Virus record (IMG/VR): IMGVR_UViG_3300045988_134547 | Span: 1-49,846 of that record | Source of the DNA: a virus | Direction: 5' to 3' (one strand) | DNA length: 49,846 nucleotides | In this document: one piece after another, positions 6,462 through 49,846 of the stretch | How the letters are laid out: each line of letters begins with the position of its first letter | How positions within the stretch are numbered: the stretch's first letter is position 1 | The notes under the pieces: generated by a model | The model's database searches: none | What the model saw: only the letters and a program-made list of their open reading frames with translations | Told to the model about the DNA's origin: nothing | Made by a program: the position numbers and the translations under genes

Positions 6462-6866
6462 ATGGCAACAAAAATCTACGGATCTTCAGATGATCTGATT
6501 GAGTTTGAAGGTGACATTTACGATGAAATCGGAGCCTATAAAGCTCAGGACAAAGGGATACTTTTATCAGATGGCACAGTGCTTGAATGTTCATATCCTA
6601 AAACTCCTGGCCTTGGGGTTTGGGGATTCAAACTAGTCCGTGCTGGTCGCCTCTTTGATCGAATTGAAGAATGTAATGATGAAAATGCAGAGATTTACTC
6701 TGACATTGTTCACTTCAAAGATGGCCTAACAGACTTTTGGGAAATCATTCCTGAGCATAAACAAAAAGTCCTGGATCTTCTCGATCAACACTGCATAGAA
6801 GACTTTGCCTATGTCAGTCATCACGAAAAACTCATGCAATGTATGTATATCGAGCAAGAGTATTAA
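6462..6866 (+). CDS. Hypothetical protein (134 aa)
   Basis: SD GGAG with a 7-nt spacer. Confidence 0.6.
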   Translation: MATKIYGSSDDLIEFEGDIYDEIGAYKAQDKGILLSDGTVLECSYPKTPGLGVWGFKLVRAGRLFDRIEECNDENAEIYSDIVHFKDGLTDFWEIIPEHKQKVLDLLDQHCIEDFAYVSHHEKLMQCMYIEQEY

Positions 6867-11606: not shown

Positions 11607-11898
11607 TATTGACTATGACAAATTGTCCAGCATGGTGGCCGACAAACTCTCAAGTCAGATCGCCGAAAAGCTGATTCAGAAAACAACCAAGCTCACACTC
11701 TCTCGACCAGAAGTAGAGGTTAGGATCGGTTTTGCTCCTGGTTCTTCTGCCGCCCGTGAAATAATGAAGGATCCGAAGTTTCCTAAGCCCGATGCATTCT
11801 CCGAGAATGGGCGTGATCGTTGGTACACAAAAGACATTGATGACTATATGGAAAGCAAAAGACACGCCCGTGCCAAGCTCGCTATTTCAGCCGCTTAG
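11599..11898 (+). CDS. xis: Excisionase-like (AlpA/Xis-type) DNA-binding protein
   Basis: The segment LSRPEVEVRIGF...IMKDPKFPKPDAF..NGRDRWYTKDIDDYM fits the Xis/AlpA pattern. It converges on int and overlaps it by 17 nt. Confidence 0.6.
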   Translation: MNDIDYDKLSSMVADKLSSQIAEKLIQKTTKLTLSRPEVEVRIGFAPGSSAAREIMKDPKFPKPDAFSENGRDRWYTKDIDDYMESKRHARAKLAISAA

Positions 11899-12958
11899 CA
11901 ATTTCTTCTGCGCTCGCTCTGTAGTATCTCTGGAGCATCTTTAAATCTTTGTGCCCCGTTTGTCTTGCAAGCGCCAGGACATCTAAGCGGGGCGCCCCTG
12001 TTTCTGGATCAGGGCTGGCGGCCCAAGTCGCAAAAGTTGCGCGGCCGTCATGAAAATTCAGACCCTCTTTTATCAGTCGGTTTTGTGAATCGTACTCAGG
12101 ACCAAGACCGGCCCTATCCCTCACCTTTCGGAATAACGTGTCTCTGTTGTGATCGTTAAGTCCGCCAAAAATACGTGGTTCATACTCGAGATCCATAACT
12201 AAGTTAAGAATCTCCCGAGCTCGTTCAGATAACGCCACGTCTCTTCTTGACAATGTTTTTGTAGCCTCTGCCGGTACATGAAGCACATTGTCATCAATCC
12301 AAGAATATTCAATCTTTAAAAGTTCCCCGGCGCGCATTCCCGTTTGACAACTGAAAAGGAAAGCAGCCACGGCCAACTGCATTTTATTTTTAGGCACGGT
12401 GTGGCCGTCCCAGCCGCTAGCTTGGAGGAGTTTCTGTATATCCTCGTCTGAAGCAACCCGCTCACGGTGCTCAGGCTCCCGAGGTTTTTCTACACCTCTG
12501 CATGGATTCACGTCCGTGAGTTCGTTTTTAATGGCGTATTGAAAAACGTCGGAGAGAATTGTCAGTTCTCTATTAACCGTTGACGGCAGAATATTGGTGT
12601 CTCGGTGTAATGCCCGCTCATTGAGGCGGCGTTCAATATAGTTCTCTATCGTCCGTTTTGTGAAAGTTGATAGAGTTTTAGCCGCCAGCTTGTCTCTCTG
12701 GAGGCGTCTCAGTCGGATTTCTTCGGTGCGTCTGGAGCGTTTCTTAGCTGTAACCTCGTTAATGTATTCATCAATCAGCGCGGCCAGAGTAATTGATGAA
12801 GAGCGTTCTTCTGCGCTGATGTCCAACTCAGCCGCAAAGCGTTTTGCTTCAGCTCGAGTTTTAAATGTTTTTGAGAATCGCTGTTTGTTTCCGTCTGCTT
12901 GCAGTCGGTAGCCGTAAACCTCGTACGTGCCGCAAGACGTTTTTCTGATTGCCGTCAT
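11882..12958 (-). CDS. int: Tyrosine integrase
   Basis: The C-terminal catalytic region carries ...TGMRAGELLKI...HDGRATFATWAA...LARQTGHKDLKMLQRYY (the R..H-x-x-R..Y pattern). The start is set at the ATG with GAGG, because the upstream part of the listed ORF is made of attP arm repeats. Confidence 0.9.
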   Translation of the reverse strand: MTAIRKTSCGTYEVYGYRLQADGNKQRFSKTFKTRAEAKRFAAELDISAEERSSSITLAALIDEYINEVTAKKRSRRTEEIRLRRLQRDKLAAKTLSTFTKRTIENYIERRLNERALHRDTNILPSTVNRELTILSDVFQYAIKNELTDVNPCRGVEKPREPEHRERVASDEDIQKLLQASGWDGHTVPKNKMQLAVAAFLFSCQTGMRAGELLKIEYSWIDDNVLHVPAEATKTLSRRDVALSERAREILNLVMDLEYEPRIFGGLNDHNRDTLFRKVRDRAGLGPEYDSQNRLIKEGLNFHDGRATFATWAASPDPETGAPRLDVLALARQTGHKDLKMLQRYYRASAEEIAKRLK

Positions 12959-12972
12959 ATCCGCCTCGAAAA

Positions 12973-13208
12973 TTTCCGTTAGCGTTTCCGTTAAATTTCC
13001 GTTATCTAAACCCGAATATAACGAGATATGCCAAAACGGACAACAAAAAATCCCGCAAAACCGAGGCTTGACGGGATATGACAAGTATGTCTGGTGCCCG
13101 GGACTAGCACCACATTATCAATAATATTCAATCAGATAACTTTAACGGTTCCGTTAGATTTCCGTTATATGGATGTAAAACGGAAATTTTTGATGGTTTT
13201 AACGGAAA
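12973..13208. repeat. attP region: at least 8 copies of the TTTCCGTTA arm-type motif flanking a ~130-bp core
   Basis: Direct copies at 12973-81, 12985-93 and 12996-13004. On the other side there is the palindrome TAACGGttCCGTTA (13143-56), one more direct copy (13159-67) and inverted copies (13177-87, 13199-208). The region abuts the int start. Confidence 0.6.
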
Positions 13209-14951: not shown

Positions 14952-14975
14952 GAAAAGCCCCTCACATGGAGGGGC
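14952..14975 (-). terminator. Intrinsic terminator GCCCCTC-catgt-GAGGGGC-TTTT (minus strand)
   Basis: Same palindromic stem as the plus-strand terminators at 4555 and 9455. It separates the cassette array from the holin. Confidence 0.6.
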
Positions 14976-14982
14976 GGAGCGG

Positions 14983-15375
14983 TTAGGAGGTTTGGCCTCC
15001 GACTGCGGGGATGAAATATACGGTTGAGTTGTCTGTATTTCCGTCTAACACCGCGGCCACATATTTGCAACTATCCCCTTTTTTGACGGGCATGTATACA
15101 TCAGGCCATGCTAGGCGAACTTGTCCTGAAGTCAGTGCAACCTGTTGTCGTGAACGGGGACCGTTCCCTACCTCTATGTAACTAGTATTACTTGCTCCGT
15201 CGATGCAGACATATCCGGAACACGGCGCTGTATACGTACCATCAAGAGTTTCCTTGCCTTGTGCGATGACTATTCGATCAGCCCATTTTTTCGGCATTCC
15301 TTGTTGAGCAATGAACTCCGTGTCACTTCTCTTCACGAACTTGGAGAGGAGGAGCGCTAAAACTGATTTCAGCAT
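14983..15375 (-). CDS. Fibre-distal cassette protein, family member 1 of 6
   Basis: Contains MLKSVLALLLSKFVKRSD..., YTAPCSGYV, VKKGD and VYFIP. It shares the N-terminal helix and three motifs with the five upstream paralogues. Confidence 0.65.
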   Translation of the reverse strand: MLKSVLALLLSKFVKRSDTEFIAQQGMPKKWADRIVIAQGKETLDGTYTAPCSGYVCIDGASNTSYIEVGNGPRSRQQVALTSGQVRLAWPDVYMPVKKGDSCKYVAAVLDGNTDNSTVYFIPAVGGQTS

Positions 15376-16136
15376 GACGCACATCCAAACATCTGATCAA
15401 TTGTTCCCCTCGACTTTGTATATTCGAAGATAGGCAGTAGAGAACTGATTTGATCGCCCAATTGCGTAGGTAAGTTCTTGACCTTTTTTAGCGTAAGCCC
15501 AGATCGAAAGATTCCCATTCGCAGATGGTCCGAGATTGATGAGATTGAACCCTCCAATATCGGCAAACCAAACTCCATAACCTCTGAGGTTGACAACCCC
15601 CGTGTATGGCATGGTGAATGGGTGACTTTCTCCATCTGCAATAACAGGTAGTTCAGAAGAGCTTTGAATAGAAATTGCCGACTGCTCCGCCACCCACTCC
15701 CGCTTGTTCTGTAAGAATTTCTCCGCAAAGAGCTGCACAAGTTGCTTAAGCATATTGCACCTCCTTGCAGAAGAGCGTTCTTAAGAGCTGATACCCCCCC
15801 CCAGACCAAAGCATAGAACGTCGCAGAAGTATCTGCGGCAGTCTCAAAAATTATTTTTTTACCCTTAGCAATAGGAACAAAGAGTTTGGCTGCTCGTCCC
15901 TCACGAGGGTAGCTACTAGTCTGTAAAACCTGCCCATACACGTTGATACCGTTGTTTGTTACTGTTGTTATGAATTCCAAATATCCATCGTTGGGCGCAA
16001 CGTATTCGTTGCGGCCACCGGTTACAGATACGCTAGTGCTAACGCTTTTATCTGGTAAGGCCAAGGATGCAACTAAAGCGGATTCCTGTTTGCTGTAAAA
16101 CTTCGATAATAGGAGGCTCAATAAACTTTTCAGCAT
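15369..16136 (-). CDS. Fibre-distal cassette protein, member 3 of 6; as sequenced it reads through a 9-G tract into the +1 frame of member 2 (255-aa ORF)
   Basis: SD AGGAGG. The family-like part ends at ...ATFYALVWGG, at the tract. With 10 G it would end as WGGGISS-stop. Confidence 0.6.
   Translation of the reverse strand: MLKSLLSLLLSKFYSKQESALVASLALPDKSVSTSVSVTGGRNEYVAPNDGYLEFITTVTNNGINVYGQVLQTSSYPREGRAAKLFVPIAKGKKIIFETAADTSATFYALVWGGVSALKNALLQGGAICLSNLCSSLRRNSYRTSGSGWRSSRQFLFKALLNYLLLQMEKVTHSPCHTRGLSTSEVMEFGLPILEGSISSISDHLRMGIFRSGLTLKKVKNLPTQLGDQISSLLPIFEYTKSRGTIDQMFGCASC
15397..15753 (-). CDS. Fibre-distal cassette protein, family member 2 of 6
   Basis: Strong SD AAGGAGGTG. Its N-terminus MLKQLVQLFAEKFLQNKREWVAEQSA is closest to member 4. 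The gene is entirely overlapped by a stop-free +1 frame. Confidence 0.7.
   Translation of the reverse strand: MLKQLVQLFAEKFLQNKREWVAEQSAISIQSSSELPVIADGESHPFTMPYTGVVNLRGYGVWFADIGGFNLINLGPSANGNLSIWAYAKKGQELTYAIGRSNQFSTAYLRIYKVEGNN
15794..15802 (-). repeat. Poly-G tract (9 G on the coding strand) at the 3' end of cassette 3
   Basis: CCCCCCCCC on the plus strand. Confidence 0.95.
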
Positions 16137-16157
16137 AATGCGCCTCCTGTCAAAGGA

Positions 16158-16529
16158 TTAAAAGTCTGAACTTGCTTTGTAGAACCAAAGAGAATAATCG
16201 GTTGTACTTCCGCCACGGCACAAGAACTTAATCTGTGTCCCTTTTTTAACGTAACAACAGATTCCAGCTCCCGCAGTGTTTCCGTTAAGTATGGAAGCAA
16301 GTGCCATCTGCCCGTTCTCGACTTGGATTTCAAGAGCTGAGACTGTAGTTGAATTGCACCGAGAAGTCGCCCAGCCGTTGCACGGTGCGGTGTAGGTAAA
16401 GAAATCCGTGGTGCTTGTGCAAGGAATATTAATGCCCTGATGGATAATAGGAGCTGATTGTTCTGAAACCCAAGATTTTTTGCTCTTAAGAAAACTTTCG
16501 GCAAATAGTTGAACGAGGGCCTTAAGCAT
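16158..16529 (-). CDS. Fibre-distal cassette protein, family member 4 of 6
   Basis: SD GGAGGG. Contains MLKALVQLFAESFLKSKKSWVSEQSA, YTAPCNGW, VKKGT and WFYKA. The gene is entirely overlapped by the stop-free +1 frame 16130-16591. Confidence 0.7.
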   Translation of the reverse strand: MLKALVQLFAESFLKSKKSWVSEQSAPIIHQGINIPCTSTTDFFTYTAPCNGWATSRCNSTTVSALEIQVENGQMALASILNGNTAGAGICCYVKKGTQIKFLCRGGSTTDYSLWFYKASSDF

Positions 16530-16553
16530 GGCAGAGCCCTCCGAACAAGAATA

Positions 16554-16907
16554 TTATCCCCCCCCGAATGATTTGTAGAATTTAACCTCAATATCAGTCA
16601 AGTTATAAAGAGATATAGAGACGGTCTCTCCTTTGCTCACGGGAGCGGTCACGGCTTGACCCCAATCTTTAACAGATTGGAAAGTTCTTAGAAAATAATT
16701 CTCTCCGTTGCTGCTAATTCCAATAGCACTGCCGCCATTTGCTTCAGATTTGCCCTCTACAGTTATGAACCCGTCTTCGGGCGCAGTGTATATCTGTTCC
16801 CCTGTGAAGATACTTGTAGAGGAAGACGTGTTGCGCAAAGCGGAATGCGCCGCCTCGCTCGGAGTAGTTCGGCTATCGAGTAGCCGCTGAATAAGTTGTT
16901 TTAGCAT
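16554..16907 (-). CDS. Fibre-distal cassette protein, family member 5 of 6; ends in an 8-G tract (…KSFGGG-stop)
   Basis: SD AAGGAG. Contains MLKQLIQRLL..., YTAPEDGF, VSKGE and KFYKSF. Confidence 0.7.
   Translation of the reverse strand: MLKQLIQRLLDSRTTPSEAAHSALRNTSSSTSIFTGEQIYTAPEDGFITVEGKSEANGGSAIGISSNGENYFLRTFQSVKDWGQAVTAPVSKGETVSISLYNLTDIEVKFYKSFGGG
16558..16565 (-). repeat. Poly-G tract (8 G on the coding strand) at the 3' end of cassette 5
   Basis: CCCCCCCC on the plus strand, directly before the TAA stop. Confidence 0.95.
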
Positions 16908-16942
16908 TTAAACTCCTTGCCGAGCCTAAATGCTCGGCGTTA

Positions 16943-17357
16943 TTAGATTGGGCAGAAATAGCAATAAACCATTCCGGCACTCATGCCATAGTGGTATTCA
17001 ACTTGCTGTCCTTTTCTGATGTACATGTATGCTCCAAGATTGGAGCCGGGTTGTTGAAGTCTTGTTAGGGTCGGCCATTTATTTTGGGCTTTATTGCGGA
17101 TACCAACAAATATCGCTTGCGTTGCGTAAATCCAAGCAACCCCATCCGCTGGAGCCACATAAATAAAAGAGTCTGTGATAAAAGCGTCTGTGTCCGTAGC
17201 TGTATGGACCAAGATATTTCCTGAAATGAAATCAGAAATGCCTATCTCTGACGACCTTTTCCCATATATAGTTAAACTACCCCCCCCCACAGCCGCCGCT
17301 CACTGATCTGCGAGGAACGAATAAGCTACACAACAGACTTGCTAATTGTTTAAACAT
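16943..17357 (-). CDS. Fibre-distal cassette protein, member 6 of 6; interrupted by a 9-G tract after codon ~26 (frame-OFF as sequenced)
   Basis: The ATG at 17357 has an AGGAGG SD and gives the family-type N-terminus MFKQLASLLCSLFVPRRSVSGGCGGG-stop. The rest of the protein (GSLTIYGK...YVAPADGV...IRKGQ...) continues in the frame reached with 8 or 11 G. Confidence 0.6.
17280..17288 (-). repeat. Poly-G tract (9 G on the coding strand) near the 5' end of cassette 6
   Basis: CCCCCCCCC on the plus strand. Confidence 0.95.
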
Positions 17358-17964
17358 TGAAAAAACCTCCTTGTCTCATAGAGTTGCGGGCATCAACTGC
17401 CTGCTCCAATTCGTAGGCCAAAGCTTCCGGAAATGCCGGATAGTCGATAAAAGGAAAGCTAGGCTTGTCCGGAAGATCTTTAAGTGCTTGGCGATAATTC
17501 AATAACGCCTGTCGATCTTCTTCAGTTAATTGAGCTCTCTTCGCCTTGGCGGCTGACTGCACAGTAATGTCCGGGAGCTGAACATACTTATCAGTGTCAG
17601 AGATTCGAGCATTGCGCTCTCCTCTAACTTCTTGTTCGTAACGCTCTTGGACAAATTTGTCATCCAGTTCAGGAAGTTCTGTTGAAAGGTAGTAATTACC
17701 GTCAGCACTGTGGAAATAGCCTTGAGGACTGGGCTCAAGCTTCCAATATTTGATGATTACTCCATCATCTCGCTTAAATCTTTCGGATAGCTTGTAATGG
17801 CTCTCTGCGTACGCCTCATCTTTGGGATCTGTAAACGCGTGCTGACTCGGTGCATTGGAGGAAACAACAATTCTTCCGTCCGCGTCCTTCAATGAATATT
17901 TTGCAAGAGGCCGACCCATAGCCTTGGCCAACATCTCTTGCCGGACTTCTTCAAGTGTTTTCAT
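17350..17964 (-). CDS. Tail fibre assembly chaperone (Tfa-like)
   Basis: The C-terminal part ...ARISDTDKYVQLPDITV...EEDRQALLNYRQALKDLPDKPSFPFIDYPAFPE is the typical Tfa pattern. It follows the fibre genes. Confidence 0.8.
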   Translation of the reverse strand: MKTLEEVRQEMLAKAMGRPLAKYSLKDADGRIVVSSNAPSQHAFTDPKDEAYAESHYKLSERFKRDDGVIIKYWKLEPSPQGYFHSADGNYYLSTELPELDDKFVQERYEQEVRGERNARISDTDKYVQLPDITVQSAAKAKRAQLTEEDRQALLNYRQALKDLPDKPSFPFIDYPAFPEALAYELEQAVDARNSMRQGGFFNV

Positions 17965-17976
17965 GCTTTGTCCTTT

Positions 17977-18990
17977 TTAAGAGTTTCCTGATTCAGAGTT
18001 GCTACTGGTTTGCGTGTTCTTGGCATCGTCAATTTGTTGCTGTGTACCTCCGTTCTCGAGAATCAGTTCTTCGAGAATCGGGCAGAGGTAGTCATCGACA
18101 TGACCATTGAAATAGGTTTCAGCCCAAGATTCCGCACCGGCTGTAAAGTTGATGTTCGACCGTGCTGTGGTTTGTTGCGTCTCTGTAAGGGCTTGAGCCG
18201 CCTCATATGAGACACTCGGCGTTAAATCCGTGTAGTCAGCAGATAAAAGAGCTGTCCCGGCAGCTGTGTCCACAGACGCAATCGTGAACATTCTTCCATC
18301 AGTTCCGACTACGGTGTCACCAGCTTTAATGTTGCCTTGAGGCTTCAAATCAGAGATTTGAATAGTGGCCGAAACTTGGAGCGCTTGATTGATTACTCTG
18401 ACAGCATAGGCACTTGCAGCCGCCTCAAGAGCTTTCGTTTCGGCAGTCTGCGCGGCGGTTTGGGCAGTTGTTGCCGCCGTTTGTGCGGTTTCGGCATTGC
18501 TCTGGGCAGTTTCTGCCGCCTGTTGCGCCGCCTGTGCAGTTTGCAGAGATTGAGCCGCGTTGTTAGCCGCAGTTTGAGCACTAGCAGCTGAACCTTGAGC
18601 AGCAGTCTGAGCCGCGGAAGCCGAAGTTTGTGCCGAGTTCGCTGTTGTAACTGCCACCGTGGACGCATCGACCGCACTCTTAGATTGAGCAATAGCAGTC
18701 TGTATATCTGCATCCCAATCATCGACTACTTGCTTCAAAGTCTCAACTTTTTCATTTGCAGCATTCGCTTCCGCCAATGCATTTGAAGAAATTGAATTTG
18801 CCGTCTGTGCTGTTTGCCGAGCTTCCTTAGCGATCGATAGAGCCTCTTCGGAATTGTCAGAGGCTTGGTCTGCGTACGCGCCAACATCGTTAATAGCGTC
18901 CTCCGTCTGCTGAAGAACTTCGGGGCCGCTGATAACTCCGGTTCCTGTCGGCGTGTAATGAAATTGGAATTTCGAATCTGCCATGATCAA
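17977..18990 (-). CDS. Tail fibre protein (Ala/Gln/Thr-rich shaft)
   Basis: Long AQTAAQ-type repeats, as in P2 H / Mu S-type fibres. Confidence 0.8.
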   Translation of the reverse strand: MIMADSKFQFHYTPTGTGVISGPEVLQQTEDAINDVGAYADQASDNSEEALSIAKEARQTAQTANSISSNALAEANAANEKVETLKQVVDDWDADIQTAIAQSKSAVDASTVAVTTANSAQTSASAAQTAAQGSAASAQTAANNAAQSLQTAQAAQQAAETAQSNAETAQTAATTAQTAAQTAETKALEAAASAYAVRVINQALQVSATIQISDLKPQGNIKAGDTVVGTDGRMFTIASVDTAAGTALLSADYTDLTPSVSYEAAQALTETQQTTARSNINFTAGAESWAETYFNGHVDDYLCPILEELILENGGTQQQIDDAKNTQTSSNSESGNS

Positions 18991-20034
18991 TTACTCCGGC
19001 AAGCGCAAGAAATAAGCGAGCGTGTAAAAAGGCGGCTCATTGGTAACGCCTGTGATTTTTGCGTTCGCTGTTAAGGTGTGCGTGTGCGTTTGACCTCCAC
19101 CAGTAGAGCCGATACTCAATCCATGCTGATGAGAGCCATTAGAAGATGTTTCTCCCGTCCAAGTTCTGGACGCATCAATATTGAAAACACCTCGACCATT
19201 TTGACGGCCATCGGAGCATCCGGGATGATCACCTACGTAAACAAGAGGACCGTTACCAATCACGCTCAACCAGTTGGCGGAAATTTGTCCGGTGATGTTC
19301 ATTGAACCTCTTGTGTGGGTATGAGCACCTGCAGGAGATGTGCTACCTGAATGAGAATGTGCAGGCATCTGTGCGGCCGTCAGCGCAGTAGCACCAACTG
19401 TGCCGTTGACGGTCAAATCTGGAATCTCAATGGTTGAAGCACCTCCGGTTGTGCCCGAATCTTTTGGTAGAGATCCTTTTATAAATTTTCCAATCAAGTT
19501 TGGAGTTACACCATTCTGCCCGTCACTCTGGCCATCACATAGAATCCAGCCTTCGTCGGCTTGAGTAGTTCCCCAAAAAACTGGGCGTCTCCCATCACTA
19601 CCACCTAATGTCACGTTATGAAAAGGAACTACGGCGCCCGCTGGAACGGTAATGTCGATATTTTTCCAAACTGCTCTGTTAGTTCCGGGCGCCACCTTGG
19701 TACTTGATGGTCCGTTGGCTTGGATGCAGCGGTACTTAGTTCCATTCTGCATAACTTCGTTCCCAACTTCGTAGTCCAAGAGGGCGGAATAATTCATAAT
19801 CCCGCCCTGTTGATACCACAGAAGAAATTGAGAAAGCAGGAAAAAGACGCCATTGAAGTCGGACTTAAATGGAGGAATGCCGCCTTGTTCGATGGGAATA
19901 GCATTTTCTCGTCCCCAACCTATTTGCTGAGAGAGCCGTCCTAATCCAGCTTCTTCTGAAGTTAACGGAGGAATGGTAATTTCTCCGTCCTGTGCGATAG
20001 CTGCACTTAATTGATACTTTGGATAATTACTCAT
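18991..20034 (-). CDS. Tail fibre / baseplate-proximal fibre protein with a tail-collar-like domain
   Basis: GWILCDGQS...LIGKFIKG plus H-x-H repeats (AHSHSG, AHTHT, SHQHG, THTHT). Confidence 0.8.
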   Translation of the reverse strand: MSNYPKYQLSAAIAQDGEITIPPLTSEEAGLGRLSQQIGWGRENAIPIEQGGIPPFKSDFNGVFFLLSQFLLWYQQGGIMNYSALLDYEVGNEVMQNGTKYRCIQANGPSSTKVAPGTNRAVWKNIDITVPAGAVVPFHNVTLGGSDGRRPVFWGTTQADEGWILCDGQSDGQNGVTPNLIGKFIKGSLPKDSGTTGGASTIEIPDLTVNGTVGATALTAAQMPAHSHSGSTSPAGAHTHTRGSMNITGQISANWLSVIGNGPLVYVGDHPGCSDGRQNGRGVFNIDASRTWTGETSSNGSHQHGLSIGSTGGGQTHTHTLTANAKITGVTNEPPFYTLAYFLRLPE

Positions 20035-49710: not shown

Positions 49711-49735
49711 AAGACCGCTGCGGCGGTCTTTTTTT
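49711..49735 (+). terminator. Intrinsic terminator AAGACCGC-tgcg-GCGGTCTT-TTTTT ending the cI operon
   Basis: Perfect 8-bp stem plus a T-run. The T-run is the first bases of the terminal repeat. Confidence 0.8.
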
Positions 49736-49846
49736 GTTCCAAAAAAGCAACAAACTTTCGGCTCAAAAAATCTTATCGTCTTGGTAACAAAAAACTAACC
49801 TAATTGATTGCATCTTTTATTACCTATATGGTAATATTTGCTTATC
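49728..49846. repeat. Terminal direct repeat, right copy (identical to 1-119)
   Basis: Base-for-base identical to the window start. Confidence 0.95.

Follow-up and report, generated by a model that had tools for sequence, protein, structure and literature searches.

Length-variable poly-G tracts with three frame outcomes in a cassette array of a temperate Parasutterella phage

Hypermutable poly-G tracts of 7-11 G have been described in the receptor-binding protein genes of Campylobacter Fletchervirus phages (Sorensen et al. 2021, Cell Rep 35:109214, as relayed in PMC12823448, PMC10877375 and bioRxiv 10.1101/2025.10.21.683753). The locus analysed here is an array of six small gene cassettes carrying three poly-G tracts in the IMG/VR virus record IMGVR_UViG_3300045988_134547, of which positions 1 to 49,846, the whole stretch of DNA analysed, are referred to as the window. 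The two systems are alike in having G tracts in several tail-associated genes of one phage, with tract length shifting the reading frame and making subpopulations. They differ in that Fletchervirus tracts lie in large receptor-binding proteins, whereas the window holds cassettes of about 120 amino acids (aa) from an unannotated family. The window phage is also temperate, has a gut betaproteobacterium as its host, and carries most of its tracts at the 3' end of genes. From its sequence, each tract has three conserved outcomes, one of which runs through the following gene in a frame recoded to lack stops.

Several other systems share part of this design. Bacterial contingency loci in Campylobacter, Neisseria, Haemophilus and Bordetella resemble the window in slipped-strand mispairing, tracts of about 8-11 and reversible switching, and they include tracts that fuse adjacent open reading frames (ORFs); the window differs in being a phage genome, in its periodic array and in having the downstream gene recoded for shifted ribosomes. 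Contingency loci of T2 and T4 consist of short repeats (6 or more) scattered in lytic coliphage genomes (Gomez, Barrick and Waters, bioRxiv 10.1101/2025.10.21.683753), and coliphage simple repeats are under-represented in tail-fibre genes (bioRxiv 10.1101/2025.10.21.683753). They are comparable as hypermutable simple repeats in phage genes for bet-hedging, whereas the window has long G tracts confined to one tail-associated array. The G segment of Mu with Gin, the C segment of P1 with Cin and the BPP-1 Mtd diversity-generating retroelement likewise provide stochastically variable tail-tip modules beside fibre and chaperone genes, but in the window no invertase, inverted repeats or reverse transcriptase is involved, and variation lies in homopolymer length, combinatorial over 3-5 sites. 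The prfB frameshift site has a layout like that of tract 1 in its commonest state, where a G-rich Shine-Dalgarno (SD)-like stretch, as a candidate stimulator, precedes a shift-prone codon and then a stop; unlike prfB, tract 1 is not an invariant site, and its DNA length changes between genomes.

Among open-access papers, none was found on the tail genes of Parasutterella phages, and none describing a recoded bypass frame tied to a homopolymer. The mechanism of variation is familiar, unlike four other features: it operates in a temperate gut phage, the tracts form a periodic array, each of the three frames has an exact destination, and every downstream cassette has been synonymously recoded. 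The phage is a temperate myovirus of Parasutterella, with the array at the 3' end of its tail-fibre operon. The analysis favours the reading that the tracts are functional DNA-level contingency loci with a three-state layout, to which we assign a probability of roughly three in four.

Tract positions, rarity and length variation

On the plus strand the three tracts read as C runs of 9, 8 and 9; the coding strand here is the minus strand, where they are runs of G.

17280..17288, minus strand, poly-G tract 1, G9, after codon 23 of cassette 6 (the first cassette)
16558..16565, minus strand, poly-G tract 2, G8, at the 3' end of cassette 5
15794..15802, minus strand, poly-G tract 3, G9, at the 3' end of cassette 3

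The minus strand codes for the whole tail and lysis module, with every gene between 13.4 and 47.5 kb lying on it. Besides these tracts, a scan of all 49,846 bases of the window found no G or C run of six or more. Under a first-order Markov model, 0.52 G/C runs of at least 8 are expected per window, and three such runs on one strand within 1.6 kb have a probability of about 1e-5, while overlapping 8-mer hits number 5, compared with a mean of 0.63 in dinucleotide shuffles. The two termini of the window share about 119 nt of identical sequence (1-119 equals 49728-49846), establishing it as a complete, circularly closed phage genome of about 49.7 kb, and the rarity of the tracts therefore applies to the whole phage.

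Related loci were collected as a set of 65, comprising 60 IMG/VR contigs, one isolate genome and four metagenome contigs and totalling 685 kb; assemblies carrying the window's own array (L070-L077) extend the later comparison to L001-L077. Every tract length is one consensus per assembly. The relatives hold 196 G runs of at least 6, all on the coding strand and nearly all 3' of the chaperone gene, and no C run of at least 6 occurs in the 685 kb. Tracts are spaced about 730-800 nt apart, and the layout of the array is the same in about 70 loci. Lengths range from 6 to 11, with a mode of G9 (128/196) that holds at every position. Arrays in relatives contain up to five tracts, compared with three in the window: L014 has five, and L012, L017, L030 and L033 have four. 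The fourth, and sometimes fifth, tract falls at the position of the window's cassette 1. Cassette 1 itself ends in ...AVGGQTS and shows an interrupted GGAGGC where relatives have a G run; its 3' end may be a decayed tract.

Tract length varies between DNA molecules that are otherwise the same. When tracts were grouped by identical 60+60-nt flanks, 16 of 31 groups held more than one tract length, with their members otherwise the same there. Alignments with assemblies of the window's own array are equally direct. L070 matches the window over 2,502 nt with 1 mismatch and 2 gaps, with tracts of 8/9/9 vs 9/8/9; L073 matches over 1,959 nt with 0 mismatches and 2 gaps, with tracts of 10/8 vs 8/9; and L071 matches over 521 nt with 0 mismatches and 1 gap, with G8 vs G9. 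The number of gaps in these alignments equals the number of tracts that differ. Altogether L070, L071, L073 and L076 show 0-1 mismatches over 0.5-2.5 kb, yet have different tract lengths. The first tract has homologues in 52 related loci, with lengths of 6-11. Within one clade (L036-L060) that shares the same flanks at about locus position 6677, G9 occurs in 9 loci, G6 in 5, G7 in 3, G10 in 2, G11 in 1 and G8 in 0. The lack of G8 and the frequency of G6, which keeps the frame of G9, suggest that selection there disfavours the ON state or favours the frame in which the G run meets a stop.

A first-pass annotation of the same DNA had placed tracts of G9, G8 and G9 on the coding strand and reported no other G/C homopolymer of 7 or more; the coordinates and lengths were reproduced, and the rarity holds even at the stricter threshold of 6. 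It had read the tracts as slipped-strand frame switches acting on a multi-cassette array, by analogy with Campylobacter phages, and this interpretation is supported by length polymorphism between near-identical DNA and by the rarity of tracts elsewhere. The lengths are not invariant, since relatives with 0-1 mismatches differ, and comparable tracts are not common elsewhere, with none in the rest of the genome and the relatives' 196 nearly all in the array. A comparison with homologous phages, which the annotation had suggested, finds tracts kept at homologous positions with lengths of 6-11. Its assignment to a temperate phage agrees with the adjacent integrase gene and with a related prophage in the isolate genome of Parasutterella excrementihominis YIT 11859. 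The proteins of the window contig appear as third-party annotations of Caudoviricetes sp. at NCBI, the same contig being held in IMG, and a blastn search of the 5.2-kb region against 50,697 GenBank phage records returned no match.

Three frame outcomes and recoding of the B-type cassettes

The cassettes and their reading-frame segments in the window are as follows.

17277..17357, minus strand, cassette 6 leader, 26 codons, an N-terminal helix peptide ending at a TAG past tract 1
16943..17290, minus strand, cassette 6 body, 115 codons, joined in frame to the leader at G8 or G11
16554..16907, minus strand, cassette 5, A-type, 117 aa as observed, ending in the tract
16158..16529, minus strand, cassette 4, B-type, 123 aa, following the tract, start ATGCTTAAG
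16130..16557, minus strand, stop-free +1 frame across cassette 4, the read-through lane of tract 2
15369..16136, minus strand, cassette 3, A-type, in the read-through state, family domain at 15803-16136
15397..15753, minus strand, cassette 2, B-type, 118 aa, start ATGCTTAAG
14983..15375, minus strand, cassette 1, terminal, tract-less here, 130 aa, start ATGCTGAAA

The cassettes alternate between two types. A tract closes each A-type cassette, the B-type cassette begins 35-40 nt beyond it, and the next A-type cassette follows 21 nt past the B-type in the same frame. At 132 of 134 A-end tracts the three frames lead to the same trio of outcomes, one frame being open for at least 80 codons. In state S, a stop occurs 0-4 codons past the G run. 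In state C, a tail of 12-17 codons ends on a stop at +5 of the B start (ATGCT-TAA), which holds in 80/81 contexts. In state R, the B cassette is read in its +1 frame for about 140 codons, up to a stop that begins at +4 of the following A start (ATGC-TGA/TAA) in 92/96 distinct contexts. The first tract behaves differently: translation stops at once, stops 2-3 codons later or yields the full-length protein.

Each gene of the window was rebuilt in silico at tract lengths of 6-12. Cassette 6 gives a 26-aa peptide with a TAG stop at G9 and products of 137/138 aa at G8/G11. Cassette 5 ends as GGG-stop after 117 aa at G8, gains 11 aa at G9 and reaches 258/259 aa at G7/G10. Cassette 3 gives 255 aa at G9, ends as ...WGGGISS-stop after 118 aa at G10 and makes 129 aa at G8. 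As assembled, the window therefore has cassette 6 OFF (GGG-GGG-GGG-TAG), cassette 5 in state S and cassette 3 in state R. Every frame outcome that the first-pass annotation had given for cassettes 6, 5 and 3 was matched by this series; the three-state design and the recoded stop-free +1 frame had gone unremarked there. Downstream of tract 2, the stop of the +1 lane (TGA, 16130-16132), which terminates a 153-aa ORF at 16130-16591, overlaps the start codon of cassette 3. Downstream of tract 3, the cassette 3 domain is fused to the +1 frame of cassette 2, with a stop that overlaps the start of cassette 1.

The same sites take other states in public assemblies. At the tract 1 site, L070 and L071 have the same flanks with G8, the ON length; at the tract 2 site, L070 has G9 and L073 has G10 in otherwise identical DNA; and at the tract 3 site, L072-L077 have G8. 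The corresponding products recur: cassette 5 is found as the S product of 117 aa in 4 contigs, the C product of 128 aa in 8 and the R product of 259 aa in 3, while cassette 3 is found as the R product of 255 aa in 10 contigs, the S product of 118 aa in 2 and the C product of 129 aa in 21. The 137-aa ON product of cassette 6 occurs in 1 contig of the cluster table and in 2 of the contig look-up (ENA, Logan). Given the length differences among near-identical assemblies and the presence of all products in public data, hypermutation of the tracts at the DNA level is well supported by the sequences compared. Across relatives, A-end tracts (n=134) are in R in 82 cases, S in 27 and C in 25, and first tracts (n=52) show an immediate stop in 30, a stop after 2-3 codons in 17 and the in-frame ON arrangement in 5. 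The commonest configuration in relatives, with the first cassette OFF and the others in read-through, had likewise gone unremarked in the first-pass annotation.

The second codons of the two types are partitioned in step with these outcomes. B-type cassettes start ATG-CTT-AAR in 118/118, leaving +1 open and placing a stop in +2, while A-type cassettes start ATG-(C/T)T(A/G)-AAR in 122/126, placing a stop in +1. The +1 frame is stop-free over the whole cassette in 24 of 27 non-redundant B cassettes, compared with 0/28 A and 0/18 tract-less cassettes, which contain about 8 +1-frame stops each. Under synonymous shuffling, the probability that a B cassette has an open +1 frame is 0.11 per cassette. 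Codon choice follows the same pattern, with 5.7 NTA/NTG codons per 100 in B, 13.2 in A and 12.4 in tract-less cassettes. A stop-making base follows NTA/NTG in 3.8% of cases in B, compared with about 51-52% in A and tract-less cassettes, and leucine is written as CTT or CTC in 70% of cases in B and 31% in A. Judged from these codon patterns, the B cassettes are synonymously recoded in a way that keeps +1 stop-free.

The +1 frame was also considered as a second conserved protein domain, that is, as dual coding. This was rejected, with substitutions following the B frame and +1 amino acids diverging about 2.6 times faster than those of B. In orthologous B cassettes, substitutions still gather at third positions of the B frame (ratio 3.98, compared with 4.62 in A). 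These comparisons indicate that the B frame is the coding one and that the +1 frame is kept as a ribosome path or as a long tail of arbitrary sequence.

Proposed mechanism and competing explanations

The comparisons show that replication slippage alters the G count between otherwise identical genomes and that, at tract 1, cassette 6 is either joined to its body (ON) or stopped after the 26-aa leader (OFF). In the mechanism proposed from this, the A protein would in states S and C have a near-native C-terminus, with B made independently or by coupling. In state R, A would carry a long non-conserved tail and probably be non-functional, B would be bypassed, and ribosomes would be passed to the start of the next unit, so that each switch would be insulated from its neighbours. 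The output of the array would be virions differing in adsorption, amounting to bet-hedging. A tentative extension treats the tracts as three-position ribosome routing switches, which would terminate, couple onto the B start or bypass B via the +1 lane. On that reading, rated somewhat less likely than not, synonymous changes to a coding gene would have given it a second, non-coding use as a conduit for ribosomes. If routing is correct, a tract locked by GGAGGTGGN substitutions should give low B expression in state R with next-A expression steady.

Several observations weigh against the mechanism or parts of it. Every cassette has its own SD sequence, and coupling may not be required. The consequences assigned to state R, namely an inactive A, a bypassed B and reinitiation, are drawn entirely from frame geometry. 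Homopolymer errors could account for some of the consensus tract lengths. Only 5/52 loci have the first cassette in frame, and in the L036-L060 clade the in-frame G8 is missing although it lies one step from G9, while the frame-preserving G6 is common. Neutral slippage would not predict a missing G8 and a common G6, and RNA-level recoding may contribute.

A variant of the same model holds that the long junk tail merely inactivates A, with no ribosome hand-off or bypass of B, and we regard it as somewhat unlikely. It draws on the lack of conservation in the amino-acid sequence of the tail, on the resemblance of the S-state C-terminus to tract-less family members and on the SD sequence of each cassette. 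Inactivation should, however, be achieved by 30-50 residues, yet about 140 codons are stop-free in 24/27 divergent B cassettes, and the frame ends at +4 of the next start in 92/96 contexts. The exclusion of stops along the full length, together with an end on the next start, leads us to favour ribosome hand-off and B bypass over tail inactivation. Errors of homopolymer sequencing or assembly, with one fixed true length and conventional ORFs, could be invoked because homopolymers are error-prone, the lengths come from consensus assemblies, and both the split cassette 6 and the 255-aa run-on of cassette 3 resemble indel errors. Such an explanation is scarcely credible when tracts occupy homologous positions in about 70 loci from many samples plus an isolate genome, lengths span 6-11 and not merely +/-1, and the alternative products recur on independent contigs (21, 10 and 2 for cassette 3); the start-codon partition, the exact stop placement and the B recoding would make no sense if one length were real.

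Action at the RNA level, through programmed ribosomal frameshifting or transcriptional slippage, would let G9 yield a fixed product ratio, with DNA variation secondary. The anti-Shine-Dalgarno sequence can base-pair with a run of G, and the +1 shift of prfB relies on AGGGGG and a stop codon. The window and 30/52 relatives have a prfB-like GGG-GGG-GGG-TAG/TAA at tract 1, the stop directly follows the run in those 30 of 52 first tracts with 5/52 in frame, G9 is modal at every position (128/196), and one clade has G6 five times and G8 never. We nevertheless consider RNA-level action improbable as the primary explanation, since DNA lengths differ between near-identical genomes and all three frames are populated, the alternative OFF frame of 17/52 first tracts calls for a shift in the reverse direction, stimulation by a stop codon is impossible at R-state tracts, which lack one, and the array contains no Rfam frameshift element. 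The G9 mode could also reflect a mutational bias of G tracts toward about 9, as in Campylobacter. The invariant site and shift expected of a prfB-like element were not found, with lengths of 6-11, 17/52 tracts in the other OFF frame and 5/52 in frame. A further possibility is that the G runs are primarily recombination junctions for cassette shuffling, with incidental frame effects. Arrays are indeed mosaic, with cassettes found in 0-28 loci compared with about 60 for the fibre and chaperone genes. Blocks of at least 93% identity often break off within 60 nt of a tract, and tract 2 is the exact point from which L072 and L074 become homologous to the window. This is nonetheless very improbable, as B|A junctions without a tract hold about as many breakpoints, and the exact stop placement and B recoding are left unaccounted for; if it were true, exchange frequency should change with tracts replaced by GGAGGTGGC. 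DNA-level contingency loci with a three-state layout remain the preferred reading of the tracts.

Cassette family, gene neighbourhood and significance

The six cassette proteins have in common an N-terminal MLKxLxxLL helix, a YxAPxDG motif and a KG motif, with 23-30% identity. The search recovered 323 homologues, all hypothetical and all from gut metagenomes or Parasutterella. A PDB profile search with the cassettes gave nothing below E = 0.07. An AlphaFold2 model of cassette 4, built on a 74-sequence alignment, reached a pLDDT of 84 and comprises an N-terminal helix (residues 2-23) followed by a seven-strand beta-sandwich. Foldseek matches to the model are weak (E 1e-4 to 1e-2, TM-scores 0.3-0.5) and are mostly to C1q/TNF-like heads, phage tail-fibre proteins, viral protrusion domains and carbohydrate-binding modules. 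Among them, C1q-type matches recur (cerebellin, collagen X NC1, adiponectin and phage 'C1q-like' proteins) with TM-scores of 0.30-0.46, alongside cupins and carbohydrate-binding modules. The predicted fold is an N-terminal helix with a jelly-roll beta-sandwich, possibly C1q-like.

Cassette content is mosaic. About 60 loci have the fibre and chaperone genes, with alignments spanning 80% or more of the 337-aa fibre gene in 61 loci. The window cassettes, by contrast, occur in 0-28 loci, and L001-L065 offer no close match to the DNA of cassettes 5 or 3. Phages with 96-99% identical chaperone and fibre genes hold different cassettes. Breakpoints of high-identity blocks (at least 93%) occur at both kinds of cassette junction, so that each cassette is an exchangeable module. 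The tracts had been considered as unique sites of cassette exchange, a role rejected on finding that tract-less junctions break about as often.

The late-operon position, the hypervariability beside a conserved fibre and the predicted fold suggest that the cassettes are exchangeable fibre-tip or receptor-binding heads, a role that we find plausible, with the case evenly balanced. Weighing against it, searches of the cassettes in Pfam, PHROGs, NCBIfam and PADLOC gave no match for any of them, and the role is drawn from gene position and from fold matches at TM-scores of 0.3-0.5.

Features flanking the array are listed below.

17350..17964, minus strand, tail-fibre assembly chaperone, Pfam PF16778 (E 2e-11), PHROG 4912
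17977..20034, minus strand, two tail-fibre genes, 347 aa and 337 aa, with PHROG tail-fibre matches, upstream of the chaperone
14957..14975, minus strand, terminator-like hairpin and T run, between the array and the holin gene
11882-13084, integrase, adjoining the tail and lysis module

On the minus strand, the gene order is baseplate J, DUF2612 (Phage_Wedge1), the 347-aa fibre/collar protein, the 337-aa alanine-rich fibre and the chaperone, followed by cassettes 6 to 1, the terminator-like hairpin, holin, lysozyme, a spanin-like gene and the integrase. The chaperone stop overlaps the cassette 6 ATG (17357) at the junction ATGTTTAA; an overlap of chaperone stop and first start occurs in 58/58 first cassettes, with the same geometry as state C. 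The cassette 6 leader peptide, ...LCSLFVPRRSVS, is kept across loci. Relatives with collagen-like fibres have the same chaperone (52% identity) and the same cassette family. A 20-aa C-terminal motif, LxxxxxELxLxNGxTQxxID, is common to the otherwise unrelated alanine-rich and collagen-like fibres (E = 0.002), located at 18036-18095 in the window (residues 302-321 of the 337-aa fibre) and at 4923-4982 in L002. The motif may be a site that binds the chaperone or the cassette proteins; the match (E = 0.002) was too weak for it to be counted as a docking site.

The 347-aa fibre/collar protein (18991-20034, minus strand) contains His-x-His repeats (HSHSGS..., HTHT, HQHG..., HTHTL), which resemble the metal-binding HxH motifs of T4-type fibre needles, and it has a weak CBM_5_12 match. 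A scan for promoters and terminators gave counts not above those in shuffled sequence, with one convincing terminator-like hairpin, located after cassette 1. A perfect 8-bp GC-rich hairpin, GCCGAGCATTTAGGCTCGGC, without a T tail, lies at 16919-16938 on the minus strand, between the cassette 6 stop and the cassette 5 SD sequence; the cassette 6/5 junction is the only one of the array with neither a tract nor a stop/start overlap. An anti-polarity role of the array in protecting the lysis genes was considered and is weakened by two things: the hairpin between the array and the holin gene, and the fact that some 330 nt go untranslated when the first cassette is OFF, as it commonly is. An Rfam scan found no frameshift or regulatory RNA in the array, its sole match in the window being a C4 antisense RNA at 1647-1730 on the plus strand (RF01695, 46 bits vs a gathering score of 45). 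This is a phage immunity RNA of the P1/P7 type, placed here upstream of the plus-strand early genes.

Poly-G hypermutability in phages has so far been documented experimentally mainly in lytic Campylobacter phages, and the present finding extends poly-G tracts to widespread temperate phages of a common human gut commensal. The array presents them as periodic, multi-site tracts within a mosaic library of exchangeable cassettes. A stop-free +1 frame that ends on the next start is a clear and statistically strong case of selection for translation itself and not for its product, making the system tractable for the joint study of translational coupling, gene overlap and bet-hedging. Automated annotation will keep yielding split and fused ORFs at these loci, which are biological and not errors. 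Should the cassettes prove to be receptor-binding heads, virions of many different adsorption specificities could come from a single prophage, which would bear on host-range estimates for the gut virome and on phage engineering.

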